DNA of 45,066 nt from an uncultured Eubacteriales bacterium (lineage in GTDB: Bacteria; Bacillota; Clostridia; Christensenellales; Aristaeellaceae): positions 1 to 45,066 of the forward strand of contig CACWXY010000067.1 of assembly GCA_902764915.1 (NCBI GenBank), read 5' to 3'. This document shows positions 26,578 to 42,460 of the stretch, piece by piece (position 1 is the first letter of the stretch; every line of letters starts with the position of its first letter). Position numbers and translations under genes: made by a program. The notes beneath the pieces were generated by a model, which saw only the letters and a list, made by a program, of their open reading frames with translations, was not told the origin of the DNA and searched no databases.

Positions 26578-27300
26578 ATGCAGGATACGCTGCTGATTCG
26601 TGAAGTCCGCATGGACTGGGACAGGATCGCGCAGGACAGCTATCTGCGGCGCATTCCCGCTCTGTGCGGCAGAAGCACGCTTGCGTTCCATAAGGCGGTT
26701 ACCTTCTTTGCGGGCGAGAACGGCAGCGGTAAGTCGACGCTCCTGGAAGCAATTGCTGTCGCGGCGGGGTTTAACCCGGAGGGCGGAACCAGGAATTATC
26801 ACTTCTCCACCTATGACTCGCATTCCGCGCTCTGGAATGCCGTTCGCCTGGTGCGTGGCGTGCGCCCGCTACAGTGGGGCTATTTTCTGCGGGCGGAGAG
26901 CTTTTACAATGTGGCTACGCAGGAGGAAGCCTACAGCCGGGAACAGGGCGGCCGGCCGCAGCACTTTCATAAGCGGTCCCACGGCGAGAGCTTTCTGGCA
27001 CTGATGCAGGATACCTTCCGCGGGGAAGGCCTGTACATACTGGATGAGCCGGAGGCAGCCCTTTCGCCCCAGCGGCAGCTGACACTGCTTATGGAGATGG
27101 ATCGGTGCAGGCGGGCTGGGGCGCAGTTCCTGATAGCGACGCACTCGCCTGTTCTGCTGGGACTGCCGGATGCGGAGATTCTTTCGTTCGATCAGGGAAG
27201 TATTCAGCCGATCGCCTATGAGGAAACAGAGAGCTATCGGGTAACGTCAATGTTCATTGCGCATAGGGAACAGCTGCTGCGGCAGATTCTGGACGCATGA
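26578..27300 (+). CDS. AAA-family ATPase (ABC/RecF-like P-loop, AAA_21-type).
   Basis: Walker A is FFAGENGSGKSTLLEAI. Walker B and D-loop are GLYILDEPEAALSP. The H-loop is IATHSP. Confidence 0.7.
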   Translation: MQDTLLIREVRMDWDRIAQDSYLRRIPALCGRSTLAFHKAVTFFAGENGSGKSTLLEAIAVAAGFNPEGGTRNYHFSTYDSHSALWNAVRLVRGVRPLQWGYFLRAESFYNVATQEEAYSREQGGRPQHFHKRSHGESFLALMQDTFRGEGLYILDEPEAALSPQRQLTLLMEMDRCRRAGAQFLIATHSPVLLGLPDAEILSFDQGSIQPIAYEETESYRVTSMFIAHREQLLRQILDA

Positions 27301-27473: not shown

Positions 27474-27561
27474 GCAGAAGTACCCAAGTGGCCGAAGGGG
27501 CTCCCCTGCTAAGGGAGTAGGCGGGTTAAACCGCGCCCGGGTTCAAATCCCGGCTTCTGCG
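27474..27561 (+). tRNA. tRNA-Ser (anticodon GCT), class II with a long variable arm. CCA is not encoded.
   Basis: - The gene reads GCAGAAG-TA-CCCAAGTGGCCGAAGGGG-CTCCC-CTGCTAA-GGGAG-TAGGCGGGTTAAACCGCGCC-CGGGTTCAAATCCCG-GCTTCTGC-G.
- The acceptor stems pair perfectly. Confidence 0.85.
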
Positions 27562-27567
27562 CATCCA

Positions 27568-27610: not shown

Positions 27611-27692
27611 TATTGCAAATTTGAGTAACACGTGATGACCGAATCGTACATCAAACATAGCCAAAAATCGATCATTTTGGCACGTTATTTTT

Positions 27693-27739
27693 CTATTGAC
27701 ACCTCTATTGACACCTCTATTGACACCTTATTGACACCT
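27693..27739. repeat. Tandem 12-bp repeat CTATTGACACCT x4, each unit containing a TTGACA hexamer.
   Basis: The sequence is ctattgacacctctattgacacctctattgacaccttattgacacct. Confidence 0.7.
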
Positions 27740-28180: not shown

Positions 28181-28618
28181 TCAGTTCTTTTCATTTTTCA
28201 CTTTCCGGATCAGTTCACGGATTTGTTTTTCATCATTCGCTGTTTCCTTCACAGCCAGTCCGATGCCGTTGAAGCCTTTTACGGAGGCGTCACCTTCATT
28301 AGAACAACGCGCATATTCTACGTTTAATACGGTGGACACGGTGTGGATCCCCTTTTCATCCAAAGTCTTCAGCTTGTCGTACAGGTCCAGGAAACGATCA
28401 TCAAACAGAATGAGGCGGGAACTGAATGCCTGATGAATATTCAGCATGCCGCATATTTTCACAACGGTGTCATAGCCCATGGTTCCGATGCCTTTATTCA
28501 GCGCGTTCATGATTGTTGGGTAGGGGATTCCGCTTGCTTCTGAGAATTTGGAGATCGTGCCGTACTGCTGCCGGATTTCTGCTTTTATCAGATTTGTAAT
28601 GGTATCGATGGACGCCAT
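28181..28618 (-). CDS. HTH transcriptional regulator (phage-repressor-like N-terminal HTH; C-terminal domain unknown). Divergent from the SPFH gene.
   Basis: The protein reads MASIDTITNLIKAEIRQQYGTISKFSEASGIPYPTIMNAL.... A perfect RBS, aggagg, lies before the ATG at 28618. A minus-strand terminator hairpin is at ~28035–28062. Confidence 0.6.
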   Translation of the reverse strand: MASIDTITNLIKAEIRQQYGTISKFSEASGIPYPTIMNALNKGIGTMGYDTVVKICGMLNIHQAFSSRLILFDDRFLDLYDKLKTLDEKGIHTVSTVLNVEYARCSNEGDASVKGFNGIGLAVKETANDEKQIRELIRKVKNEKN

Positions 28619-28888
28619 CCTCCTTTCTATTCGTGCATGTTGACATTGTATCACCAAATAATATAATGGAAAACAGTTTGTTGATCACTTATGGTGAGGA
28701 TTGAAGGCCGAGGTGATATGGACGATCCGGTTGTTTGCCATGTACAGACAACTGTAATTTTACGATTCTCGTTGATGAATCCTGAGTATAACATTATAAT
28801 AGTTCCTGACGCAGAGACACATTTCATGATTGTGTCTCGAAGACAGAAAAATACAAATATACAGCCCCATGCAGTATATCTCATTTCC

Positions 28889-30691
28889 ATGGAAACATAC
28901 AGCAATTTCTGCATTTGTCACAATTATGCTGAGGCAAGCAAAGGCTTTTTTGCAAGCAGGCGCATCCGCTGTGCCTGCGGGAATATCATCGATGTCAAAA
29001 CCGATCGAATGGCTACCATGACCTGTCCTTCATGCGGTAATGATGTGGTATATGATCAGGCAAAGGGCCGGGATGCCAAATGCCCGGTCTGTCATGCAAA
29101 CCTGATTTCCGATGCGTCCTTCAGCAACCTGGTTCATTTCCGCTGTGCCACCTGCGGCTGCCAGCTGCATGCCGACAAGGCGGCTGCCACAATCACCTGC
29201 CCGGTGTGCGACGCTGTCAGTGATGTGCAGCAGGAGCTCAAAAAGGCGGAAATGCGCGAGCAGGGGATCCCCGCGGTCATCAGCTATGAAGGGGACAATA
29301 CTGTCTTTGTGTGGAAGCATCCCATGACGGACTTTGTCACAGGCAGCCAGCTGATCGTTCATGAGAGCCAGGAAGCAGTCTTCTTCCGCAATGGAGAAGC
29401 ACTGGATTCGTTTGGCCCCGGCCGTTATACCCTGGAGACAGGGATCCTTCCGAAAATGAATCAGCTGTACCGTATACCGGTCCAGGGACAGCCCTTCCAT
29501 GCGGAGGTCTATTTCGTCAACCTGACCACCCAGATGGGAATCAAATGGGGGACCGCCAGCAAGGTGGGACTCTTTGATCCGGCCACAGGGCTGCATGTGG
29601 AACTGGGCGCCTCCGGCTCCTTTAACCTGCGCGTGACAGATCCCAGAAAACTGCTGATCAAGCTGGTCGGTACGACAGGCAGTCTCACCCAGCGCGATCT
29701 GTACGACAGCGGGAATACAGGGGTCTCCGCGGGCGCGTCCACAGGCGTTCAGAAGGGCTACTTCCGCACCATGATTGCCACCAGGGTCAAGGGAAACCTG
29801 GCCAGGATCATCAAGACGAATCAGTTCAATGTGCTGGAACTGGATGAACATGTGGATAGCATCAGTACGGCGCTGAAGGATGCCATCAATCCGGAACTCG
29901 AGGAATATGGCCTTGAGATGCCGGAGTTCTATGTGGCCAATATTGTCACTCCGGACGATGATCCCAACTTCCGCCGGCTGAAACAGCAGCACGCGGAAAT
30001 GTATCTGAAAGTCCGGGAGGAAGCAATCCGCAAGGCAGAAGCGGAAGCCGCGTTTGAACGCAAGGCTGTGGAAGCCCAGACGGCGGCCCGCATGAAAGTG
30101 ATCGGCGCACAGGGCGAAGCGGATGCGGCCCGTATTACCGGACAGGCACAGGCGGACGTGTACCGTATGCAGGCTGAGGCAGAAGCACAGGAAATGCGCA
30201 TGAAGGGATACACATACCAGCAGGAGACAGCACGTCAGGTGGGCGTCGAGGCCATGCGCAATGGCGGAGGTGCAGGTGTCACCGGTATCGCAGGCGAAGC
30301 GATGCAGCTGGGTGTGGGCCTTGGCGCTGTGGGCGGTGTGATTGGCATGACCCGTGAGGCGATTCAGCCGATGATGCAGTCTGTTGGAGAGATGGCACAG
30401 CCTGCCGGGACGCAGCCTGTCGGGACGCAGCCTGCCGCGGCCCAGCCGGAGAGCTGGAACTGTACGTGCGGCAAGACCGGTATTACCAGCAGATTCTGCC
30501 CGGAGTGCGGCGCGAAGAAACCGGAACCGCCCAAGCCCTGGGACTGCAGCTGCGGGGAGAAGGGCATTACCAGCAAATTCTGCCCCAACTGTGGTGCGAA
30601 ACGACCGGAGACCTGGGACTGCCCAGCCTGCGGTGCAAAGAGACTGAGCGGCAAGTTCTGCCCGGAGTGCGGCGCGAAGAAGCCTGAATAA
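28889..30691 (+). CDS. SPFH/band-7 (YdjI-like, 'virion core protein' type) protein with N-terminal zinc ribbons and three C-terminal zinc-ribbon repeats.
   Basis: - The N-terminus has CxxC pairs: CPSCGNDVV...CPVCHANLI, CATCGCQ...CPVCDAV.
- The central region is an SPFH-like beta/alpha core plus a long Ala/Glu/Gln coiled coil: ISYEGDNTVFVWKHPMTDFVTGSQLIVHESQEAVFFRNGEALDSFGPGRYTLETG....
- The C-terminus has three repeats of W(N/D)CxCG(K/E)xGITS(R/K)FCPxCGAK.
- The start is uncertain: ATG at 28889 or 29009. The ORF-track start at 28691 lies in AT-rich promoter DNA. Confidence 0.7.
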   Translation: METYSNFCICHNYAEASKGFFASRRIRCACGNIIDVKTDRMATMTCPSCGNDVVYDQAKGRDAKCPVCHANLISDASFSNLVHFRCATCGCQLHADKAAATITCPVCDAVSDVQQELKKAEMREQGIPAVISYEGDNTVFVWKHPMTDFVTGSQLIVHESQEAVFFRNGEALDSFGPGRYTLETGILPKMNQLYRIPVQGQPFHAEVYFVNLTTQMGIKWGTASKVGLFDPATGLHVELGASGSFNLRVTDPRKLLIKLVGTTGSLTQRDLYDSGNTGVSAGASTGVQKGYFRTMIATRVKGNLARIIKTNQFNVLELDEHVDSISTALKDAINPELEEYGLEMPEFYVANIVTPDDDPNFRRLKQQHAEMYLKVREEAIRKAEAEAAFERKAVEAQTAARMKVIGAQGEADAARITGQAQADVYRMQAEAEAQEMRMKGYTYQQETARQVGVEAMRNGGGAGVTGIAGEAMQLGVGLGAVGGVIGMTREAIQPMMQSVGEMAQPAGTQPVGTQPAAAQPESWNCTCGKTGITSRFCPECGAKKPEPPKPWDCSCGEKGITSKFCPNCGAKRPETWDCPACGAKRLSGKFCPECGAKKPE

Positions 30692-30866
30692 GAGAAACAG
30701 TGGATGGCTTGCAACGGCGAGAACCACATAGTTCTGAAGAACCAAAACCAGTACTGTGATGGATAAGTCCCGATGCTTTCTGTTTTCAGGATTACCACGC
30801 GAAGCAATATGCAGACGATGTCTTCAGAATAAGTTAGACATAGTATGACTTCAAGGAGAAAATACG

Positions 30867-33452
30867 ATGGCAGCATTGACCTGTAAGATGTGCGGCGGAA
30901 ACCTGGTGCTGACAGCAGACAGCAACGTCTGTGAGTGTGAATTCTGCGGAACCCGGCAAACAGTGCCCAATGCGGACAATGAGAAGAAGACCACACTCTT
31001 TAACGAGGCGAACCGTCTGCGGATGAACGCAGAATTTGATAAGGCGGCAGCAGTGTACGAGAGCATTGTCGCTGAATTCCCGGAGGAGGCTGAGGCCTAC
31101 TGGGGCCTTTGTCTGTGTACTTACGGCATTGAGTATGTGGATGATCCTGCAACGGGAGAAAAGAAACCCACCTGTCATCGGACGATGCCGCTGTCCATTA
31201 TGGAGGACAGCAATTTTGAGCAGGCCTGTGACTGTGCGGATGTTGTCGCCCGGCGGGTCTACCGGGATGAGGCAAAGGCCATTGACCGCATTCAGAAGGA
31301 TATCCTGTCCATCGTGAGTAACGAAGCGCCTTATGACGTATTTATCTGCTACAAGGAGACCAGTGAGGAAGGCAGCCGTACAGAGGACAGTGTGCTGGCA
31401 CAGGACATCTATGATGCTCTGACAGCAAAGGGACTGAAGGTGTTCTTCAGCCGGATTACGCTGGAGGATAAGCTGGGACAGCAGTACGAGCCGTATATCT
31501 ACGCGGCGCTTGCCTCGGCAAAGGTGATGGTCGCGGTGGGTACACAGTATGAGTATTACGATGCCGTGTGGGTGAAGAACGAATGGATGCGGTTCCTGGC
31601 CATGATGAAGAACGACCGGACCAAGACGCTGATTCCCTGCTTCAAGGATCTGGATGCCTATGACATGCCCAAAGAGTTCAAGCAGCTGCAGGCGCAGGAC
31701 ATGGGAAAGCTGGGCTGGCTGCAGGATCTGACGCGGGGCATTCTGAAACTGTGCGGGAAAGAAAACGGCACTGTGGGAAACAGTGCGGAACATGGGCCGC
31801 AGTCAGTGGTGCAGCAAACAGTGATCGGCGGCAATCCCACAGCGGTGGGTCTGCTGCAGAGGGCGAAGCTTTTCCTGGAGGATCAGAAATGGGAAGAAGC
31901 AGATCAGTATGCGGAACGTGTATTGGATATCGAACCAATGAACGCGGAAGCGTATCTGGTAAAGCTGATGGCGGAACTGAATGTCAGCAAGGAAGAAGCA
32001 CTGGCAGAACAGAAAATGCCTTTTGGTCAGTATGACAATTATCAAAAAGCTGTTCGTTTTGCGGATGAGGCGCGGAAGCAGCAGATCAAAGCGTTGAACG
32101 AAAAGGTGGAACAGCGCTACAGAGAAGAAAAAGAAAGGGCAGAAAACGCTCGAAAAACAGCCGTATTGGAAAAAGCAAAGACTGCATTGAAAGCGGCAGA
32201 ATCGCTGGAAGAATGCCAGGCGGTAACAGATATGCTGGGATCCATTGCCGGTTTTGCTGGCGTGACGGATATCATGGCGGGATGCACAGCAAAAGCTGCT
32301 GAAATCGAAGCGGTTAATGCTCGAATTGCAACAATGGAAACCGAATTAAAGGAGCAGCAGGAGAGATATCAGCAGGCATCAGAAAAAGCAATGGTTATTC
32401 ATCGTCAGCTCCAAGATACAGAAAAGGACAGAGACCGAATCGCTGCGTTACTGAAGAATGCCGAAAATGAGCTGAGCAATCTTCGGGGGCTTTTCACAGG
32501 AAAAAAGAGAGCAGAATTGGAGGCGGTAATCGCAACGAAAAGCAAAGAGCTCGCTAATGTTGAGGACCAGCTGGCAAAGGAGCAGTACGCTTACCAAACC
32601 GCACAAAACGGAATTCCTGAACAGCCAAACGAAACAGAAGTGAAATACATTATTGCAAACGAATATATGCAGGCCGGTCTTTATCGGAAAGCCTATAAGC
32701 GGTATAAACAGATTGTGGGATATAAAGACGTTGAAAGTCTGTTGAAAGATGATGATAATCTTGCAGCAGCAGTAGCAGCGGCACAGGAAGCAAAACGTGC
32801 ATCTTATCGCAATGTAGGGGGTTACGCAGTTTTTGGAAGTTATCCTCAAACTGCTGACGGTGTAGACAGCACTCCCATTGAGTGGCTTGTGCTGGACTAT
32901 GATGCGGAAAAGGACTGTGCATTGCTTATCAGTCGATACGGATTGGATGCGCAGCCATACAATAAAGAATGGACAAGCATTACTTGGGAACAGTGCACGC
33001 TGCGGACTTGGCTGAATGATACATTCCTGAACAAGGCATTTACAGCGCAGGAACAAACAGGAATTCTGGTGACCAACGTAGACAACAGCAGCAGTCAGGG
33101 ATACAGCAAGTGGAGTACCAGTGGAGGAAACAATACACAGGACAGGATTTTCCTGTTGAGCTATGCGGAGGCGAACAAGTATCTTGATGTTACGCATGAT
33201 AACAGTAACAACATGAAATCGAGAGTAGCACCGACAAACTATGCGAAAAAGCAGGGAGCCGTGACATGCAGCGACGACAAAACTGCGGATGGTGCAGCTG
33301 CAGGGCAGTGGTGGCTGCGTTCCCCCGGCTACTATCAGAGCCATGCCGCGCTCGTGTTCTGCGTCGGCTCTCTCGTCAACAGCAATGCCAGCGATGAAAA
33401 TGGTTGTGTTCGCCCTGCTTTGTGGATCAATCTGGAATCTGATATCTTCTGA
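30867..33452 (+). CDS. Zinc-ribbon / TIR-domain / coiled-coil / C-type-lectin-fold protein. This is the DGR target (variable) protein.
   Basis: - N-terminus: the zinc ribbon MAALTCKMCGGNLVLTADSNVCECEFCGTRQTV.
- TIR domain at aa ~156–290: YDVFICYKETSEEGSRTEDSVLAQDIYDALTAKGLKVFFSRITLEDKLGQQ...VMVAVGTQYEYYDAVWVKNEWMRFL. It has the DVFISY-like betaA, the G-L-K-VF alphaA/betaB and the W-x-x-x-E region.
- Coiled coil at aa 380–600.
- The C-terminal ~220 aa have a DUF1566/FGE-like C-type-lectin fold ending ...GQWWLRSPGYYQSHAALVFCVGSLVNSNASDENGCVRPALWINL. The VR is here.
- The RBS is aaggag. Confidence 0.8.
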   Translation: MAALTCKMCGGNLVLTADSNVCECEFCGTRQTVPNADNEKKTTLFNEANRLRMNAEFDKAAAVYESIVAEFPEEAEAYWGLCLCTYGIEYVDDPATGEKKPTCHRTMPLSIMEDSNFEQACDCADVVARRVYRDEAKAIDRIQKDILSIVSNEAPYDVFICYKETSEEGSRTEDSVLAQDIYDALTAKGLKVFFSRITLEDKLGQQYEPYIYAALASAKVMVAVGTQYEYYDAVWVKNEWMRFLAMMKNDRTKTLIPCFKDLDAYDMPKEFKQLQAQDMGKLGWLQDLTRGILKLCGKENGTVGNSAEHGPQSVVQQTVIGGNPTAVGLLQRAKLFLEDQKWEEADQYAERVLDIEPMNAEAYLVKLMAELNVSKEEALAEQKMPFGQYDNYQKAVRFADEARKQQIKALNEKVEQRYREEKERAENARKTAVLEKAKTALKAAESLEECQAVTDMLGSIAGFAGVTDIMAGCTAKAAEIEAVNARIATMETELKEQQERYQQASEKAMVIHRQLQDTEKDRDRIAALLKNAENELSNLRGLFTGKKRAELEAVIATKSKELANVEDQLAKEQYAYQTAQNGIPEQPNETEVKYIIANEYMQAGLYRKAYKRYKQIVGYKDVESLLKDDDNLAAAVAAAQEAKRASYRNVGGYAVFGSYPQTADGVDSTPIEWLVLDYDAEKDCALLISRYGLDAQPYNKEWTSITWEQCTLRTWLNDTFLNKAFTAQEQTGILVTNVDNSSSQGYSKWSTSGGNNTQDRIFLLSYAEANKYLDVTHDNSNNMKSRVAPTNYAKKQGAVTCSDDKTADGAAAGQWWLRSPGYYQSHAALVFCVGSLVNSNASDENGCVRPALWINLESDIF
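33308..33417 (+). other. DGR variable repeat (VR) at the 3' end of the target gene.
   Basis: The 110 bp are collinear with the TR at 36464–36573. Most mismatches sit where the TR has A (AAC/AAT codons). Confidence 0.6.
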
Positions 33453-33493
33453 TCTTTAATCTTTTGCGGGCAGTATACGGAAGAATGGGTAAA

Positions 33494-33630
33494 GCTGCAT
33501 GTGACTATGCAATTATGCGCCAATGAAAAGACGCTGCCCTGGATCAGGTGATGCAGATTACCTGCGTATATTATAAAAGCCATATATCTTGCTAGTTTTG
33601 CAGGATGTATGGCTTTTATGTTCTTATTCA
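33494..33630. repeat. ~140-bp direct repeat, copy A (~90% identical to 39664–39803). It contains a rho-independent terminator hairpin at ~33577–33622.
   Basis: The repeat reads gctgcatgtgactatgcaattatgcgccaatgaaaagacgctgccctggatcaggtgatgcagattacctgcgtatat...aaagccatatatcttgctagttttgcaggatgtatggcttttatgttcttattca. Confidence 0.7.
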
Positions 33631-34212
33631 CAATATAAGGAATGGATGCTTATGAAGACGGATGGCACACGATCCGTCCACGAATGCTTTGCATGAAGAG
33701 ATATCTATTAAATCACCATGTAAAGCAAGAAAATAGCTACGAGATCCCCATCTGATGTATGAGATTATTCATAAAATCAACAACAGAGGCGCGCAATTAT
33801 CCATAAAATCATCAATCAGACAGGAATAATATATAATGAACGAAAAGACAAAAGAGAACATCAAATAAATATCTACAAAGCATATACTATATGCATAATA
33901 AACGAATAAAATATTAACATAATAGCTATAATCTACTGCAATATCAAAGAAATATATAAAAATACCATGTCAAATGGTATCGACAGGTCTATTGCATCAG
34001 CAGTCCTGCCCATACAGTGTGGCCTATGGCTGACAATGGGACTTCCATAGAACATAAAGGATTACAGAATATGATAATAGCGCCTATATAGATACAAAAT
34101 ATCAATAAAATATATTAAAAATAGTAAATCATAATGATAGAAATATTGATATTTTCACATATTTCGCATACAATCTCAGCATGTGGTATTGCAACAGACA
34201 GGAGGCCACAAG

Positions 34213-34500
34213 ATGCAATTAATGGGACTCACAGTTGTGTTTACTGGGAAAATGCAGCGCTTGACCCGGGCACAGTGCAGAGAACTTGTGCTTTTGGCCG
34301 GCGGCATTGTTCAAAGCAATGTCAGCAGATATACAGATATCCTGGTTGTCGGCGCTTTTCGAAAAAGTCAACCGTGTGGTATCAGCTACAAACTGGAGCG
34401 AGCACTCTTCCTGTCTCGATCAGGATATCACATAAGAATAATACACGAGGATGAGTTTTATGAGATGCTGGGGATCCAACACTGGACCAACTGGTTGTGA
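34213..34500 (+). CDS. Stand-alone BRCT-domain protein (~95 aa).
   Basis: The protein reads MQLMGLTVVFTGKMQRLTRAQCRELVLLAGGIVQSNVSRYTDILVVG.... It resembles the LigA C-terminal BRCT (GxxxVxTG...R.E......GG.V..SVS.KTD.LV.G). The RBS is ggagg. It lies in a 30%-GC insert. Confidence 0.55.
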   Translation: MQLMGLTVVFTGKMQRLTRAQCRELVLLAGGIVQSNVSRYTDILVVGAFRKSQPCGISYKLERALFLSRSGYHIRIIHEDEFYEMLGIQHWTNWL

Positions 34501-34694
34501 AATCTTGATGCACAACAGCATGGTATGTCTTCCGTGCAGCCCTGTTGTGCAATTAGGCTGTCCGCCATTTATGGCACATGCAAAAAATACATTCACGACT
34601 CCAGGTGCACAAAAATCAGCTAGGAGAGGATGTGCATATAGAGTAAACCCTAGATGCGCACATCCAGTTAGTCCTGGAGAGGAGAAGATCGACG

Positions 34695-35276
34695 ATGGCA
34701 CGAATCGCATACATCAGAGTAAGCACAGAAGAACAAAACACCGCCCGTCAGGATTCCATGATGGATAAGCAGAATATCGATAAGACATTCACTGAAAAGA
34801 TCAGCGGTAAGAATACGGCACGGCCAGAGCTGCAGAGGATGCTGGAGTATATTCGAGAAGGTGACGTAGTCATCGTGGAAAGTTACAGCCGGTTAGCCAG
34901 GAGCACCAAGGATCTTCTCACACTTGTTGAGCAGATTCACGGTAAAGGTGCTGATTTCGTGTCTCTCAAAGAGAACGTAGATACCTCCACACCACAGGGA
35001 AAGCTTATGATGACAATCTTCGCTGGCCTTGCCCAGTTTGAGCGTGAACAATTGCTGCAGAGACAAAAAGAAGGCATCGCTGAAGCTAAAAAGCGCGGTG
35101 CCTATAAAGGTCGAAAACCCATCGTAATTGATGAAGATAGATGGAAGGAAGAAACATCTGCGTGGCGGGCAGGGAAACAATCCGCAGTGGTTACCATGCA
35201 GCATCTTGGGCTGAAACCACGCACATTCTACAATCGGGTGAAGGCGGAAGAATGTGACAGCGGTGGAAAAGAATGA
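34695..35276 (+). CDS. Small serine recombinase (resolvase/invertase family).
   Basis: The protein begins MARIAYIRVSTEEQNTARQ with a catalytic Ser at position 10. It has the ...GDVVIVESYSRLARSTKDL...KLMMTIFAGLAQFERE... core and a C-terminal HTH. The RBS is ggagaggag. Confidence 0.85.
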   Translation: MARIAYIRVSTEEQNTARQDSMMDKQNIDKTFTEKISGKNTARPELQRMLEYIREGDVVIVESYSRLARSTKDLLTLVEQIHGKGADFVSLKENVDTSTPQGKLMMTIFAGLAQFEREQLLQRQKEGIAEAKKRGAYKGRKPIVIDEDRWKEETSAWRAGKQSAVVTMQHLGLKPRTFYNRVKAEECDSGGKE

Positions 35277-35531
35277 GGGCACAAACTACTTTCATAGCGA
35301 TACAAGCATAATAGGAAGAAACGCATACACGGTAACCAATGTTTTGAATCCAAACGCTGCTCCATCGGTTATTATTGCGTCATCCGAAAATGAAGCGCTG
35401 GAGATTTATGCTGCGCTATATCATGAGATAACGATGCAAGTCGTAACTACTGAATTGCATTCCTTTCTTCGCGCTCAATTCTATCCTTTATGGTGTGTGG
35501 CGGATCTTAATTACGTGGATCCTAATTGATT

Positions 35532-35951
35532 CTATGCGGAACGCATGACCTCTTCATTCTCTGCAGATGGATCGAGCGCCTTTTCGATGTCGATGTAGTA
35601 ATAGCGGTCGATCTCCTTGCCCTTGTCCGTTTTCGTATGGACGGGCTTGTCGCTGTACAGAGCGTTGAAGATGGACGTCAGCCGCTGCTGGCCGTCAAGA
35701 ATAAGCTCACTGGGCACAGTCCCTTCAGGAACAACGGCGCCTTCGATGGGCTTGTACTTGAACTGAATCTCAGGGTTTCCATAGGTCAGGAACATTGCCG
35801 CGCCGACCGGGAAATTGTGGATGATGCTGGCAATCAGGGCCTTGATGCGGTTATCGTCCCATACCCAGCCGCGCTGAAAGTCCGGGAGCTGTGCTGCGCC
35901 TGACTGAACTGCCTTCATCAGATCCGTAATGGTTCTGTCGTTTGTTCTCAT
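35532..35951 (-). pseudogene. Truncated N-terminal DUF262 (ParB/Srx-like, GmrSD-type) fragment. The C-terminal nuclease half is absent.
   Basis: The translation has LPDFQRGWVWDDNRIKALIASIIHNFPVG...LDGQQRLTS, the DUF262 hallmark (DGQQR). Full-length members are ~550–600 aa. This fragment stops after 139 aa. Confidence 0.6.
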
Positions 35952-36056
35952 TGTCTAATTCTCGCTTTAGATGTACAATAATCACTCTCTTTAATCCTCT
36001 TTAATCCTCTTACTTTTTTAGCCAATTTAAGAGATTAAGAAGATTCATGCAATTAC

Positions 36057-36290
36057 GTGATGACCATCACACAGAAATCTCCAAAACAGTTCCGCTTCTC
36101 ATTGATTGGCCGCATGCAGGGCTATGTGATGGACATCGTGGAAGAACTGTATTATGCCAACGACATCTATGTCACACCCGCGAGCCGCTCGGGCTGGGCG
36201 CAGCGCCAGGCGCACCAGCGGAAAGCGATGGCGCCCCTGAAACTTCTCTCCTGGGTGGCGCAGGTCAGTATGGAACAGGGAGCGATTTAG
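36057..36290 (+). CDS. Small basic ORF immediately upstream of the TR. Weak candidate for the DGR accessory variability determinant (Avd).
   Basis: The only basis is position, upstream of the TR in a DGR. It is 77 aa, shorter than typical Avd (~110–130 aa), with no recognisable four-helix signature by eye. Confidence 0.2.
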   Translation: MMTITQKSPKQFRFSLIGRMQGYVMDIVEELYYANDIYVTPASRSGWAQRQAHQRKAMAPLKLLSWVAQVSMEQGAI

Positions 36291-36463
36291 CCGAAACAGT
36301 TTCAGCAGATCAGTGAGCAGTGCTGGAATACGCAGAATCTGCTTGGCGCGTGGATCATCAGCGATCAGAAGCGACTGAGCGGCGGAAAACAGAAGCAGGA
36401 ATCATCAGATCAGGGATCAGCACCCGAATAGGGTGTTCATCTGGGTACGGTATTGTACGGGTG

Positions 36464-36573
36464 GTGGTGGCTGCGTTCCCCCGGCACCAATCAGGACAAT
36501 GCCGCGAACGTCAACAATGACGGCTCTCTCAACAACAACAATGTCAACAATGACAGCGGTTGTGTCCGCCCCG
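36464..36573 (+). other. DGR template repeat (TR).
   Basis: Within this region, tggtggctgcgttcccccggcaccaatcaggacaatgccgcgaacgtcaacaatgacggctctctcaacaacaacaatgtcaacaatgacagcggttgtgtccgcccc is collinear with the VR. It is rich in AAC/AAT where the VR varies. A GC-rich structured spacer with a GNRA-looped hairpin (ctgcccgtGCGAacggcag) follows at 36590–36820. Confidence 0.65.
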
Positions 36574-36821
36574 TTTCCCCTTGCTTGCCAGCAGTCTGCC
36601 CGTGCGAACGGCAGCCAGTGCCCTGGGGAGAAGGAATACCGCTCCCTTTCGCAGGGAATTCCTCCGCAAGCGCTGCGGAGCCCTCGGAAAAACATGCCGA
36701 CGGAGGCCCGGACGGCGGGTGAAACAGACCGCCTTTCGCAATGCCTTTGGGACGCAGGGTTTGGCTTTATTCCTCTCGCCCTGCGTCCCCCGAGCGGCGA
36801 CTTTAAAACAGGAGGTTCATC

Positions 36822-37259
36822 ATGCTGAACATATGGTTTGGCGATATGCCGGATGTCATCTACGACACATCCACCTACTTCAGGCATTCTTACCGGGATC
36901 AATGGATCACCGACCCGCTGTCCGTGGAAATGATTCGTGATGTGGACCAGTCTGAAGTGGTCGATGCCAATCTGATTCAGAGCCCGGTCTTCGGTGCGAT
37001 TTCCCCTGTCCAACTGTCCGGTGGTGTCAAGACACTGATCCTGATCAGCAAGGTCAGGGATCAGGTCTTCAACGCGTCCAAATGCGGAGACAATTGCGCG
37101 AAGTGGCTGCTGAGGATCGCTGCAGACAGGAAAGTCGTTGTCAATCTCCGCCACCTTATGGACTTTGGGAATGAAGAGTTCAAAATCATGGTGATGAACA
37201 AAAAGAAGATTGCGCACAATATGCGGGAGCTCGTCCTGCTCGCGGGCGAGTATGTGTGA
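36822..37259 (+). CDS. Hypothetical 145-aa protein, first gene of the TR-downstream operon. It contains an LSGG-like motif (QLSGGVKTLILISK).
   Basis: The RBS is a strong aggagg. It lies 7 nt upstream of the ATPase gene. I recognise no family by eye. Confidence 0.5.
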   Translation: MLNIWFGDMPDVIYDTSTYFRHSYRDQWITDPLSVEMIRDVDQSEVVDANLIQSPVFGAISPVQLSGGVKTLILISKVRDQVFNASKCGDNCAKWLLRIAADRKVVVNLRHLMDFGNEEFKIMVMNKKKIAHNMRELVLLAGEYV

Positions 37260-37265
37260 GGCGTC

Positions 37266-38237
37266 ATGAACGGAAAGCATGCAGTAAAAGTCTCTGATAA
37301 GAGAGTTCGGTACAGCTTCGAGCTGGTGCGGAATATCACCGTCGTTCAGGGCAACAGCGGCACGGGCAAAACGACACTGTTTGATATGATATCTGCCTAT
37401 ACCAGGCTCAAGGAAAGAAGCGGCGTACAGATTGTCTGCGACAAGGCATGCGTTGCTCTTCACGCCGATTCAGACTGGCAGGCAAGGCTCAGAAGTATTC
37501 ATGACAGCATTGTCTTCATTGACGAGGATGCAGAATACATCGCGTCACATGCCTTTGCCTCATCCATCTGTCATACGGATAACTACTATGTCATCTTCTG
37601 CAGGGAATCCCTTCACGAACTCCCGTACAGTGTGGAGGAGATTTACGAAATCAAGACCAGTAAAAGGCTTCATACTTTCAAGAAGATGTATCGCCGGCAG
37701 AAGGATTATGTGTACGCCAAAGCTGAGGGAAGGGCAAAGACTTCTGCTTTACTGACAGAAGACTCGCATGCAGGGTATCAGTTTTACCTGCATCATTACG
37801 ATGGCACATCGGTTGTCTGCAGTTCTGCCGGCTCAAATTCAAGCATCTTTTCATGGCTTCAGGTGCATCACGATGAAAAAGTGTTTGTTGTTGCCGATGG
37901 TGCTGCTTTCGGCTCGGAGATGAACCGCGTCATGAAATTGCAGCACCAGTTTCCTGACAAGATCACCCTATGCCTGCCAGAATGCTTTGAGTGGCTGATC
38001 CTGCAATCGGGACTGATCGATATACCAGGCCTGGATGCACTGCTCGAAAGCCCAAGCGAAAGCATCGATTCACAGCGGTATTTCAGTTGGGAGAACTTTT
38101 TCGAAGAATACTTGATTCAGCAGACAGCCGGTACTCATTACGCATATTCCAAGTCGCAGATTCACAGGTTCTACACAGTGCGGGAGAACAGCAACAGAAT
38201 CGTAGCGCTGATCGCAGCCAATATGCCGAAATCATGA
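37266..38237 (+). CDS. P-loop NTPase (ABC/SMC-like Walker A).
   Basis: Walker A is VVQGNSGTGKTTLFDMI. A Walker-B-like SIVFIDEDAEYI is present. A C-terminal ~150-aa domain reads ...KVFVVADGAAFGSEMNRV.... The stop is 2 nt before the RT start. Confidence 0.6.
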   Translation: MNGKHAVKVSDKRVRYSFELVRNITVVQGNSGTGKTTLFDMISAYTRLKERSGVQIVCDKACVALHADSDWQARLRSIHDSIVFIDEDAEYIASHAFASSICHTDNYYVIFCRESLHELPYSVEEIYEIKTSKRLHTFKKMYRRQKDYVYAKAEGRAKTSALLTEDSHAGYQFYLHHYDGTSVVCSSAGSNSSIFSWLQVHHDEKVFVVADGAAFGSEMNRVMKLQHQFPDKITLCLPECFEWLILQSGLIDIPGLDALLESPSESIDSQRYFSWENFFEEYLIQQTAGTHYAYSKSQIHRFYTVRENSNRIVALIAANMPKS

Positions 38238-39376: not shown

Positions 39377-39663
39377 TGCTGTCATTTGGGTCTTGACAAC
39401 TACTCAGCCATGATACAGTTCTTCGTATAGGACGGTTGTCTTTCCGTGTGTTACTGCACCGTAGATAGAGGGGACAGGAATACAGCGCCTGCGCATTTCC
39501 AACATTGTCCCCCGTTCAATTTCTGTTGTGATCTTCGCCACAAATACCTGCGGGAACACACCATCTTACGACACCAACGGCTTACCTTTCGTAGTGACCT
39601 TTACGCATTTATAGTCACTGGTAAATGCTGTGCCCTGGAACAGTATACTGCATAGTGGATAAG

Positions 39664-39803
39664 GTTGCATGTGACTATGCAATTATGCGCCAATGAAAAA
39701 ACGATGCCCTGGATCAGGTGATGCAGATTACCTGCGTATATGATAATAGCCATACATCTTGTTTGATTTTTGCAGGATGTATGGCTTTTATGTTCTTATT
39801 CAA
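39664..39803. repeat. ~140-bp direct repeat, copy B (see 33494–33630). It contains a perfect terminator hairpin, AGCCATACATC...GATGTATGGCT-TTT.
   Basis: Seen directly in the sequence. Confidence 0.7.
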
Positions 39804-40316: not shown

Positions 40317-40721
40317 TCACCTCATACCAGCTGCTGTTGGTCTTGGCGATGACCTGTACAAAGGAGCCGTTTTATAGGTCGCCAGCACCTTGTACTTGGT
40401 GCCCGGCCCGGAGTGCAGGCGCAGGGTGCCTTTCCGGGTTTCCGCGCCGGAAAAGTCCGTGTTCACCCGCCAGACCTCCGTCCGGTTATCGTCACCAGGA
40501 GCGGTAAAGTTCACGCGGGGCGTCATGGCGGCAGGCACCGGAGCGCGAAGAATGCAGCCCTCCGCCAGCCGCTGCCATTTCCCAGCTTCATCGATGGGAT
40601 GCACCAGAGTCAATTCATATTCGCCGTTCAGCGTTTCCGTGACCTCCGCCGACAACGGAGCCAGGGTTCCGTTGCCGTTAGTAGAGAAGTCGGTGCAGTC
40701 GGCGGGATAGACGCAGATCAT
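40317..40721 (-). pseudogene. Phage tail-fibre / tail-endopeptidase (Tal-like) N-terminal fragment. The adjacent ORF 40072..40320 is an unassigned fragment.
   Basis: The fragment reads MICVYPADCTDFSTNGNGTLAPLSAEVTETLNGEYELTLVHPIDEAGKW.... This resembles the N-terminus of siphovirus Tal / prophage-tail proteins (M.I.LYD..F..NG.G.L......V.EELNGEYEL). The RBS is ggaggtg. Confidence 0.4.
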
Positions 40722-40799
40722 GGGGATCACCTCCAGATGGGTATGAAAATAGCCCCGTCCATGCTGAACGAGGCTTGAGTATTAAATCGCTGTAGACGA

Positions 40800-41209
40800 T
40801 TATGCCTGCATTTTTTGATTAATCCGATTGACCTTCATCCGAATGCTTACATAGATAATCAGCCAGATTGCAGCAAAGGCTGCAATAAATATCAGGGTAA
40901 ATGCTCCGATCCTTTCAACGGGAAGCCAGCCGTTCAGAAGATAGATTCCCATATAGTCAATATAAAGCACTGCCATTTGGATAAGCGCTGCCATTGGCTT
41001 GGGCAGGGTTTCGATCTGATAGACAATGGAAACACCAGCGGCAATAAACGCCATTACTGTTGTTGAAATAATTCCAAGCACGACCTGGTCAACCGCCAAT
41101 GTTTCCAGAACGCCAGCTGCTTTCAGGCACAGCCATACAATCGCCATAATCACAGGGCCACCCCATGCGGCAACCAGTCCTCGCTTACAGAAATTCTTCA
41201 CATGCTTAT
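40800..41209 (-). CDS. DUF3021-type 4-TM membrane protein, the usual partner of LytTR regulators.
   Basis: The protein reads MNKHVKNFCKRGLVAAWGGPVIMAIVWL.... It sits immediately downstream of, and abutting, the LytTR gene. Confidence 0.65.
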
Positions 41210-41650
41210 TCATAATCCGTACCTCCTCTTCAAATCCGAGAAGCATCTTCTTGAAATGCATTCGGTATATCCGCTTTTGAAAACAGCATCGACAGCCCCG
41301 GAAAGCTGCACGCGGAATCGACCTATGTGTGACCAGTTGGCAATCGCTGATTTGCTGATCCGCTCATAATGGCCCGGCAGATTCTTCTCTAACTCGTACA
41401 GTCTTTTCCTGATCAGGTACTGTTTTCCGTCCTGACAATGAGCATAAGTCCGCTCCCCTTCAACGAAGAAACAATCAATCTCCCTCAGATCGAGCATGAC
41501 GATTTCTTCTTCCTCATAACCGGGAATCTGGTCTGTCAGACTGTCCTGTGTCACAAGGCGTTCTATCTCATCGATCAATGGCGTCCGTTGATGAACGGTT
41601 GCTACGATTTCCTCTTCATGGTTCCGATCCAGCTGCAGCTTGAAGATCAT
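41210..41650 (-). CDS. LytTR-family DNA-binding protein (stand-alone).
   Basis: The protein reads ...IVMLDLREIDCFFVEGERTYAHCQDGKQYLIRKRLYELEKNLPGHYERISKSAIANWSHI.... The RBS is ggaggtg. Confidence 0.7.
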   Translation of the reverse strand: MIFKLQLDRNHEEEIVATVHQRTPLIDEIERLVTQDSLTDQIPGYEEEEIVMLDLREIDCFFVEGERTYAHCQDGKQYLIRKRLYELEKNLPGHYERISKSAIANWSHIGRFRVQLSGAVDAVFKSGYTECISRRCFSDLKRRYGL

Positions 41651-41761
41651 CTATCTGATCACCTCCTACAGTTGGCATTATACAAAGAGAAAATCAGTTT
41701 GTCAGGAAATTTCGGTATTCGGTATTTTTGAAGAGGTAAACGGTCATTTTTCGTACTGCTA

Positions 41762-42460
41762 TTAAAGATATCGCCAATTCGGCTTGATAACCACCTTCGT
41801 CACTACTCCCGTCCACGATATGGCATTCGTGCCGGGCTTCAGCACCGGGAACTCACCGTTCATGTGATCGTTCATCAGGGTAGTACCCTGATAGGCTTCC
41901 TGCAGCATGGAGTCGATAACGATGCTCCCGGAGATGTTCTCCAGTTCCACGATGGTCGTGCCCACCATGAGCGTGATGTTCCCGGAGCCTGTGACCGTCA
42001 GGATCGGCTCAGAATGCACGCAGCCCGGATTCGTGATGATCGTCCCGGATGCGGTGACTGTGATGTCAGTGGCAGCGTCGGCATAGAAGAACGGATAGCA
42101 GCGGAAGTTGACGGCAAAGGTACAGTGCGGATTGCCCCGGAGCACCTTTTCAAAAGGGACCTGGTTGGCGATCCGCGCTTTATAGTAGCCACCCGTCCGG
42201 TTGGCAAAGGTCACGGTGCCGCTGCCTTTCAGCCAGGCGGCAATAGCCGGGATCTGCGCCGGATCGGAGATAAAGCAAGTGGCAGTCAGGATCATGTCGT
42301 CATACACGTCTTCGCCTTCCAGCTGCGTCAGGCTCCCCGGCCTGCCGGGCACATTGGTCTGGGTGCTTCGCTCCAGCGGGATGGTAATAGGCGGCTGCTC
42401 CGTCACGTGGATGCCGTAGGTGCGGCAGTCCACCCCGTTCCAGAGAAAATAGTCCTGCAT
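41762..42460 (-). CDS. Siphovirus-type distal tail protein (Dit / Sipho_tail family).
   Basis: The 232-aa protein is beta-rich: MQDYFLWNGVDCRTYGIHVTEQPPITIPLERSTQTNVPGRPGSL.... Length and motifs are typical of the Dit N-domain. The RBS is ggagag. Confidence 0.55.
   Translation of the reverse strand: MQDYFLWNGVDCRTYGIHVTEQPPITIPLERSTQTNVPGRPGSLTQLEGEDVYDDMILTATCFISDPAQIPAIAAWLKGSGTVTFANRTGGYYKARIANQVPFEKVLRGNPHCTFAVNFRCYPFFYADAATDITVTASGTIITNPGCVHSEPILTVTGSGNITLMVGTTIVELENISGSIVIDSMLQEAYQGTTLMNDHMNGEFPVLKPGTNAISWTGVVTKVVIKPNWRYL

Follow-up and report, generated by a model that had tools for sequence, protein, structure and literature searches.

A conserved three-part operon of Clostridia joins TIR proteins to a zinc-ribbon SPFH protein and a four-helix membrane protein

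In Bacillus subtilis, the SPFH protein YdjI, which carries a C-terminal zinc finger, requires the membrane proteins YdjG and YdjH (PMC8581546), and YdjG begins with a Cys-x-x-Cys motif (PMC8581546; 10.64898/2026.02.06.704340). Band7-like domains have also been proposed as scaffolds in other conflict systems (Kaur et al. 2020 eLife, PMC7159879). The locus analyzed here lies in a 45,066-nucleotide stretch of DNA from an uncultured Eubacteriales bacterium (contig CACWXY010000067.1 of assembly GCA_902764915.1; the whole stretch is called the window hereafter), in which the gene of a YdjI-like SPFH protein is followed by that of a protein with a TIR domain. Comparison across species shows that both genes are members of an operon, conserved among Clostridia and horizontally mobile, that is made of three parts: one to four zinc-ribbon TIR (ZnR-TIR) sensors, one SPFH protein with zinc ribbons, and one protein of about 215 amino acids (aa) with four transmembrane (TM) helices, termed here the 4TM protein. 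This operon extends what is known of TIR conflict systems, of sensors diversified by diversity-generating retroelements (DGRs) and of SPFH scaffolds, and the copy found in the window is a degenerate member.

The operon resembles B. subtilis pspA-ydjGHI (samGHI) in that an SPFH protein is encoded beside one or more integral membrane partners, needed in B. subtilis and presumably here for its recruitment. The SPFH protein of the window belongs to the Band_7_1 family and, like YdjI/SamI, lacks a TM helix and carries zinc-binding elements at its C-terminus. However, the operon SPFH protein is about twice as long as YdjI, with three extra N-terminal and three to four C-terminal ribbons; the operon has no PspA/ESCRT-III gene and has TIR genes in the neighboring positions; the membrane partner is the 4TM protein, which has no Pfam family; and the window copy differs from any samGHI-type module in having no membrane-partner gene at all. 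A second point of comparison is Thoeris, in which several ThsB proteins accompany one ThsA, along with other anti-phage systems of bacteria that use TIR domains. As there, the TIR domain of the operon keeps a Glu of the catalytic type, and several TIR paralogs are arranged beside one invariant partner; the fold of the domain matches NADase TIR domains. Unlike Thoeris, the operon has no ThsA-type SIR2/SLOG or Macro effector, and its TIR proteins are large (550-1700 aa), combining a zinc ribbon, a coiled coil, a TM helix and ligand-binding domains.

Other resemblances concern the sensor side. The systems of Kaur et al. (2020 eLife) and Doré et al. (2024 PNAS) likewise have a C-terminal lectin-type variable domain that a DGR rewrites, that is joined by fusion or linkage to effectors including TIR, and that is predicted to sense inside as well as outside the cytoplasm. 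Those systems are built around NTPases (STAND, MoxR-vWA or GTPase) and are found chiefly in multicellular Proteobacteria, Cyanobacteria and Actinobacteria, whereas the operon described here has an SPFH and a 4TM protein, no NTPase, and gut and rumen Clostridia as hosts. Animal Toll-like receptors (TLRs) offer a likeness of architecture only: single-pass proteins with a variable ectodomain (leucine-rich repeats (LRR) in one case here) and a cytoplasmic TIR domain. In the bacterial proteins the order is reversed, with an N-terminal TIR domain and a C-terminal ectodomain, and the TIR domain retains the catalytic-type Glu; no common ancestry of the architecture is implied, and the window protein has no TM helix. 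Finally, DGR targets of Faecalibacterium prophages (PMC11792537) carry the same DUF6273 domain with a variable region at its C-terminal tip; there DUF6273 belongs to structural or receptor-binding proteins of phages, whereas here it is fused to a cellular ZnR-TIR protein linked to SPFH.

An alignment of the SPFH protein was searched against one genome per GTDB species, and 270 species genomes were found to encode a relative. We inspected the best 80 of these 270 loci (52-78% identity), with open reading frames (ORFs) called by custom scripts; 39 of the 80 are adequately flanked, that is, with at least 3.5 kb upstream and at least 4.5 kb downstream of the SPFH gene. Carriers among the 80 belong to Oscillospiraceae, Lachnospiraceae, Christensenellales, Ruminococcus and Allobaculum. 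All-against-all clustering of the ORFs revealed three real recurrent families, namely SPFH, 4TM and ZnR-TIR, and those of the other big clusters that we inspected turned out to be alternative-frame or antisense ORFs inside these three genes, or a resolvase family. One to four co-directional ZnR-TIR genes stand beside the SPFH gene in all 39 adequately flanked loci, and the 4TM gene is present in 37 of them; over the 80 loci, it comes after the SPFH gene in 73. Every one of the 98 ZnR-TIR genes of the 80 loci is on the SPFH strand: 47 are located upstream, the nearest usually 1-90 bp away and further paralogs kilobases off, and 51 downstream, usually beginning right behind the 4TM gene. The number of TIR copies per locus ranges from 0 to 4, and loci with none are nearly all cut by contig ends, with partial RCC1 or LRR C-termini visible at the edge.

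The SPFH-TIR pairing is thus a genuine conserved module and not a product of chance. The preliminary description of the window, which was made from the sequence alone, had named two findings that would refute it, a lack of co-conservation elsewhere or a generic housekeeping flotillin present in all relatives without the TIR gene. Neither is the case; because the TIR pairing holds across species while the flanks vary, the SPFH gene is no such flotillin. Five encoding contigs with unrelated flanks display the same order, from SPFH to a ~215-aa protein without Pfam family and then to TIR_2 proteins, often with DUF6273. In a reverse look-up, two of three TIR proteins adjoin SPFH and 4TM genes, the third being a split orphan. 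The 4TM protein has four membrane helices, no Pfam family and a position directly after SPFH; since its gene has been lost from the window, where tblastn found no homolog anywhere, this third component could not be seen by the preliminary description. Locus flanks differ, some of them containing recombinases, integrases, DRT-type reverse transcriptases (RTs) or Leo-like genes. PspA is absent from the inspected neighborhoods and from the top families listed among 124 flanking proteins. Phage and plasmid collections contained no close SPFH relative: the best plasmid match, from Butyrivibrio pNP21, is a shorter SPFH protein at 33% identity with no TIR annotated nearby.

Several loci depart from the basic layout. 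In four of them (L026, L054, L057 and L059; e.g. L054:11840-13519), a TIR-less paralog sits between the SPFH and 4TM genes; such paralogs comprise a zinc ribbon, a TPR-like module, RCC1 and a coiled coil, and have in common with the TIR proteins the ribbon and an 'LRGLFxGKKRxELEA' motif. An RVT_1 reverse transcriptase and a small zinc-ribbon protein are wedged beside SPFH in L035 (1741-3388); a UG26-class DRT match (E 3e-166) among the pooled flanking proteins probably corresponds to this RT. SIR2_2/AbiH-like proteins occupy a similar position in L036 (586-1962) and L093 (11899-12771). A 7.3-kb contig that had been assigned to Alloprevotella sp. (L010, CAVEOA010000054.1) holds a complete Clostridia-type operon; the contig is probably mis-binned rather than evidence of a Bacteroidota carrier. 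Cultured carriers, Allobaculum stercoricanis DSM 13633 (L027) and Ruminococcus sp. FC2018 (L044), make the operon accessible to experiment.

The SPFH gene of the window is real, as the preliminary description held: its ORF (28889-30691) matches Pfam Band_7_1 (PF13421) with an E-value of 1.9e-37 and 129.4 bits against a cut-off of 24, over residues 148-357. The protein consists of N-terminal zinc ribbons (residues 8-107), the SPFH domain, a long helix (359-438), a conserved Gly-rich hydrophobic segment (466-488) and three C-terminal W-[DN]-C-x-C-G...F-C-P-x-C-G-A-K ribbons (523-600), visible at the DNA level as a three-copy repeat at 30489-30688. An alignment with 22 homologs shows three N-terminal Cys clusters (CPxCH...CxCG, CPSCG...CPVC and CxTCGC...CPVCD), followed by the SPFH domain, a helix of ~80 residues, the Gly-rich segment, a variable linker and three or four terminal W-D-C-x-C-G...F-C-P-x-C-G ribbons. 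The five zinc ribbons initially counted must accordingly be revised to three N-terminal plus three to four C-terminal Cys4 clusters in the intact protein; that both the SPFH and the TIR protein start with Cys ribbons was correctly seen. Four positions of the Gly-rich segment are invariant (M472, G475, G477 and G482). The protein is of soluble type, without TM helix, its peak 19-residue hydropathy (1.43) falling in this same segment. A 15-nt tandem repeat of 2.7 copies (30398-30437) encodes a PAGTQPVGTQP linker, in a region that varies in length among homologs.

The 5' end of the gene is damaged in the window. Two contigs from other samples of the same species (L087 and L098) read ...TTCTGCAACTTGGAGGAACTGCC-ATG-AGCAAG..., that is MSKFIIACPVCH, at the SPFH start, and both have ...TTCTGCAACTTGGAGGAACTGCCATGAGCAAG... 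at the point of the lesion. The window lacks 44 nt at 28913/28914, ACTTGGAGGAACTGCCATGAGCAAGTTTATTATCGCGTGTCCGG, which contain the ribosome-binding site (RBS), the ATG and SPFH codons 1-8, including the Cys-Pro of the first knuckle, so that CxC is read there in place of CPxC. From about codon 10 to the contig ends (7.4 kb and 8.3 kb), we count 0 and 1 differences between the two sister contigs and the window, and cross-species homology starts at 28914-28916. The annotated start at 28889 (METYSNFCICH), which has no RBS, is an artifact, because the sisters and all homologs have the start that the deletion removed and begin MSKFIIACPVCH. The deletion could be an assembly error in the source of the window. 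Two further contigs of the species (L099 and L100) keep the native SPFH start, with the gene cut after 18 codons and continued by unrelated DNA. Judging from these contigs, the species has at least three alleles of the locus, two of them inactivated.

The ORF that follows (30867-33452) encodes a protein with a TIR_2 domain (E 4e-12, 47 bits against a cut-off of 28, residues 158-280) and a C-terminal DUF6273 domain (E 1e-28, residues 685-855). Residues 1-290 of the TIR proteins, which comprise the zinc ribbon, a helical/beta-hairpin domain and the TIR domain, are 51-79% identical across species, a range given also by residues 151-290 taken separately. The ribbon (C6xxC9...C24xxC27) is invariant in 45 homologs, and the invariant residues also include Asp157, Phe159, a CYKE motif, Arg171 and W235-V-x-N-E239-W. 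In an alignment with Brucella TcpB, Glu239, invariant in 96 and in 45 homologs, falls on the Glu of the 'WPARE' motif, a residue that is catalytic in BtpA; we take the position to be that of the catalytic Glu of NADase TIR domains. An AlphaFold 2 (AF2) model of residues 1-299 (pLDDT 89) was matched by Foldseek to the TIR domains of SARM1, C. elegans TIR-1, AbTir, MAL, TIR-STING and SPARTA, with target-normalized TM-scores of 0.7-0.78 to those of AbTir, MAL and SARM1. As far as residues and predicted fold can tell, the TIR domain is catalytically plausible. The N-module (residues 1-150) retrieved 2214 clusters (50% identity) at E<=1e-30 in a HMMER search of 1.84 billion representatives.

Beyond the TIR domain, a conserved TPR-like module and a coiled coil lead to variable C-termini. 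In 84 TIR proteins we found RCC1 (35), TPR (32) and DUF6273 (16), with Sel1, BspA-type LRR (LRR_5) and Flg_new occurring singly. Hydrophobic TM segments are present in 61 of 90 TIR proteins of at least 450 aa, usually one per protein at residues ~540-660. In all 54 single-TM proteins among the 90, Lys/Arg residues are in excess on the TIR side (282 vs 101), which by the positive-inside rule places the TIR domain in the cytoplasm and the variable domain outside it; a median of 349 aa follows the helix, and a few proteins are tail-anchored. These 54 proteins and the conserved 4TM partner agree with the membrane association suggested in the preliminary description.

In the related locus L001, a TM-anchored TIR-DUF6273 gene is followed by Avd, the template repeat (TR) and the RT, and all 16 mismatches between the variable region (VR) and TR fall at TR adenines; by this pattern the L001 DUF6273 tip is a bona fide DGR target. 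Only a minority of related loci have a DGR. The window VR has 24 mismatches to its TR, only 16 of them at TR adenines, and its three available samples give no sign of active diversification in the window species. The hypervariable sensor first postulated for the window finds support in relatives, by the example of L001. Window positions 36048-36800 (Avd remnant, TR and spacer) are 88% identical in DNA to L001 13250-14002; the Avd remnant is 84% identical to L001 Avd and has lost its start and acquired an in-frame stop, whereas the RT is intact (77% DNA and 86% protein identity to that of L001). A prophage origin of the window DGR, suspected from phage tail remnants at 40-42 kb, was discarded in view of this 77-88% DNA identity of Avd-TR-RT to a cellular TIR-linked DGR.

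A 160-nt direct repeat (33471-33630 and 39641-39802; copies 88-100% identical) flanks 6.2 kb containing BRCT, resolvase and GmrSD_N-fragment genes, the Avd pseudogene, the TR, DUF4869 and ATPase genes and the RT, and this pair of repeats may mark a mobile or recombined DGR cassette. Between TR and RT (36822-38237) are genes for a DUF4869 protein (E 4e-54) and a P-loop ATPase with weak nSTAND/LmuB-like matches; the RT of L001 comes directly after the TR region, and the two window genes resemble a cassette inserted into the DGR. Upstream, the region 34183-35951 holds an ORF with a BRCT domain, a gene for a 193-aa small serine resolvase and, on the opposite strand, a 139-aa GmrSD N-terminal fragment; these look like what is left of a mobile or defense element that took the place of the operon's downstream half. 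In L088, the closest multi-gene relative, the order is SPFH, soluble TIR-DUF6273, 4TM, TM-anchored TIR-DUF6273 and a further gene that is cut by the locus end and whose DNA matches the TIR region; compared with it, the window past the first TIR gene has the BRCT protein, the resolvase and the GmrSD_N fragment instead. The window copy is a decaying remnant that has lost the SPFH translation start, the 4TM gene and further TIR paralogs, and its decay extends to the DGR, with an Avd pseudogene and a VR that no longer tracks the TR. As such it is unsuitable as a reference for the operon. Strain-level polymorphism was also observed in a human-gut species represented by three metagenome contigs (L090, L091 and L092). 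The upstream TIR-DUF6273 gene of L091 has shrunk to a 335-aa DUF6273 remnant alongside unrelated opposite-strand genes. In all three strains, the TIR gene on the downstream side is broken in two, with 463 aa for the TIR part and 293 aa for the DUF6273 part.

On balance, and with moderate confidence, we favor the view that the operon encodes a system for conflict or sensing in which TIR proteins work at the membrane on a YdjI-like SPFH scaffold. The soluble SPFH protein would be brought to the membrane by its 4TM partner, much as YdjI is by YdjH/YdjG in B. subtilis, and would oligomerize there into a platform. This platform would scaffold or restrain the TIR proteins, keeping them inactive and pre-clustered, probably through the shared zinc-ribbon and coiled-coil modules. 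The variable C-terminal domains, of which most are extracellular and separated from the TIR domain by a single TM helix, some are cytosolic and some are DGR-diversified, would bind a non-self ligand or register envelope damage. Binding would then release or cluster the TIR domains, leading to their oligomerization and to NAD+ cleavage, upon which the infected cell would arrest or die, or a signal would be produced. A role in conflict is suggested by several traits: the paralogs have multiplied and exchanged domains, the distribution is patchy, the flanks vary, and inactivation has recurred within a species; there are also occasional SIR2/AbiH-like genes and DRT-type RTs in or beside the operon and some recombinases and integrases nearby. 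Of the immune complex proposed in the preliminary description, the TIR-SPFH module is conserved, and "immune" is a property we infer.

A number of observations speak against this conflict-system view or limit its reach. Neither the SPFH nor the 4TM protein has a model in PADLOC, NCBIfam or PHROGs; for the TIR protein, defense libraries return a single marginal match, PADLOC ThsB1 (E 0.0036, 14 bits), and no window protein has a PADLOC match to the ThsA effector. The full-length AF2 model of the SPFH protein (23-sequence alignment, pLDDT 54) was too poor for a fold search and was left unused. The inspected loci are the best-matching 80, and their neighborhoods are only modestly enriched in mobile or defense genes, with many housekeeping neighbors. 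TM helices and topologies come from our own hydropathy script rather than a dedicated predictor. The window TIR protein, like its L088 counterpart, is soluble, without TM helix (maximum hydropathy 1.27). Lastly, the window VR is identical in three samples of its species, and the VR is nearly identical among the L090, L091 and L092 strains.

The operon might instead have no immune function and serve as a SamGHI-like system for envelope stress or for surface sensing and adhesion, whose ectodomains bind host or community ligands and whose TIR domain is a signaling or NAD-metabolic output. This we consider unlikely. The many housekeeping genes among the neighbors fit it, as do the ectodomain types RCC1, BspA-type LRR, Flg_new and Sel1; these are common in Firmicute surface proteins. 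YdjI/SamI and its membrane partners form a membrane stress sensor affecting biofilm and motility (PMC8581546; 10.64898/2026.02.06.704340), and DGRs of gut Bacteroides are described as diversifying adhesins (10.1101/2024.11.15.621889). However, PspA is missing from the inspected loci, an SIR2/AbiH-like gene or DRT-type RT is occasionally inserted in the operon, and the invariant Glu at the catalytic position, the paralog expansion, the patchy spread and the repeated independent inactivation in one species are traits of conflict.

Less probable still is a Thoeris-like scheme, in which the TIR sensors would make a nucleotide second messenger and the SPFH and 4TM proteins would be a membrane-permeabilizing effector acting, for example, through a glycine-zipper-like segment. 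The several TIR paralogs beside a single SPFH-4TM pair recall Thoeris, the ThsB match points the same way despite being marginal, and the conserved Gly-rich hydrophobic segment of the SPFH protein (466-488) could provide such a zipper. Yet Pfam, PADLOC and NCBIfam detect no SLOG, Macro, SAVED or STALD domain in the SPFH and 4TM proteins, and large, often membrane-anchored TIR proteins sharing a zinc ribbon and a coiled coil suggest direct assembly rather than a diffusible signal. That the TIR protein is a host-directed effector similar to Tcp (Brucella TcpB/BtpA), interfering with animal TLR signaling, is very improbable: Brucella TcpB TIR domains are the best sequence matches among solved structures (E 0.02-0.04) and the carriers are gut bacteria, but the N-terminus is a zinc ribbon and not a signal peptide, the TIR side is cytoplasmic in 54/54 single-TM proteins, and the obligate SPFH/4TM link and swapped sensor domains are unlike a secreted effector. 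Coincidental adjacency of a generic housekeeping flotillin to a TIR gene, conceivable given how common SPFH proteins are and how strongly this one, which has more than 5850 relatives at 90% clustering, is conserved (66-100% identity among the top 120 matches), is refuted by the co-occurrence counts, the same-strand pairing being kept in 39/39 adequately flanked loci despite unrelated flanks. Within the window species, moreover, L099 and L100 have an SPFH gene that is lost or disrupted but keep the upstream flank as far as the neighboring helix-turn-helix (HTH) gene.

Returning to a membrane-associated conflict or sensing system, a bolder version of it, which we offer tentatively and hold to be doubtful, would be a bacterial counterpart of the TLRs in gut Clostridia: arrays of single-pass receptors with a cytoplasmic, catalytically competent TIR domain and exchangeable ligand-binding ectodomains, which a DGR rewrites in some lineages, assembled on an SPFH platform. 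Such an anticipatory repertoire would detect phage particles or other threats at the cell surface, ahead of genome entry. TLR signaling is reported to depend on flotillin-rich membrane microdomains, and plant HIR (SPFH) proteins associate with NLRs. By tying an SPFH/flotillin-type membrane scaffold to TIR signaling in bacteria, the operon echoes both this raft dependence and the HIR-NLR association. Many of its sensors face outward; almost all characterized bacterial immune sensors act after nucleic acid entry. Those of its sensors that are DGR targets would connect hypermutation with a TIR output among bacteria of the human gut. Should the operon prove to be a defense or sensing system, it would represent a widespread module that is absent from the catalogs searched; at least 270 species-level genomes from Clostridia of gut and rumen have it, and its TIR N-module alone amounts to thousands of protein clusters. 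Among its elements, DUF6273 has been described as a target of DGRs in Faecalibacterium prophages, sensors diversified by DGRs have been linked with TIR effectors in NTPase-centered systems of multicellular bacteria, and the biology of YdjI is known. In full-text literature on SPFH with TIR, DGR or phage defense we found no description of the operon, the only relevant report being that of Kaur et al. 2020.

The features of the window that concern the operon and its surroundings are collected in Table 1.

Table 1. Positions of the operon remnant, the DGR and adjacent elements in the window
Feature	Position	Strand	Remarks
tRNA-Ser(gct)	27474..27562	+	ARAGORN; flank, outside the conserved module
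Divergent 146-aa ORF, weak HTH signal	28181..28621	-	GGAGG RBS precedes ATG at 28621; species-specific flank
Perfect sigma-70 consensus (TTGACA-16-TATAAT), directed toward the SPFH gene	28640..28667	+	Consensus match only
44-nt deletion site in the SPFH 5' end	28913..28914	+	From comparison with the sister strains (L087, L098) and with L099
SPFH gene (Band_7_1, YdjI-like), frame intact, 5'-truncated	28889..30691	+	
TIR ORF, 861 aa, starting 176 nt after the SPFH ORF	30867..33452	+	
N-module of the TIR protein: Cys4 zinc ribbon and helical/beta-hairpin domain, residues 1-150	30867..31316	+	
TIR domain, residues 158-280	31338..31706	+	Pfam TIR_2; invariant Glu239 codon 31581-31583, motif WVKNEW
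TPR-like module and coiled coil of the TIR protein, without TM helix	31824..32906	+	
DUF6273 domain of the TIR protein	32919..33431	+	Pfam; VR at domain tip, 33308-33409
160-nt element with 20-bp-stem hairpin (33573-33619)	33471..33630	+	Second copy 39641-39802
Avd (DGR accessory protein) pseudogene	36009..36428	+	N-terminus gone, in-frame stop
DGR template repeat (TR)	36464..36565	+	
DGR reverse transcriptase, 354 aa	38239..39303	+	86% identical to L001 RT

Upstream of the SPFH gene, the preliminary description had placed a divergent HTH regulator and a tRNA-Ser(GCT) integration island at 600 bp. The divergent ORF exists, but its HTH signal is weak (a PHROG repressor match at E 5e-4, and Pfam DUF2089-HTH at E 0.009, below the cut-off), and it has no homolog in the 80 related loci, for which reason we rejected it as regulator of the system. 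The distance of 0.6 kb to the tRNA is right for this ORF; the SPFH gene is 1.3 kb away. The integration island was not demonstrated, as a look downstream for a direct repeat of the tRNA 3' end found none, and the HTH ORF and the tRNA persist in L099 and L100, where SPFH is truncated and the downstream DNA differs. Since they are retained there without an intact module, both are to be regarded as flank and not as part of the system.

Minor features surround this flank. Just 3' of the tRNA, the 12-mer TCTATTGACACC is repeated in four tandem copies (27692-27739), each with a TTGACA hexamer, giving the array an iteron- or operator-like appearance. Immediately upstream of the tRNA, a short AAA_21/AbiEii-type ATPase (26578-27300; 240 aa) with AriA/PtuA/GajA-like PADLOC matches is kept in all same-species contigs. 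At the other end of the locus (40317-42460) are the prophage tail remnants: a tail protein of which a 137-aa N-terminal fragment is left, and a Dit distal tail protein, with small unrelated genes between the two.

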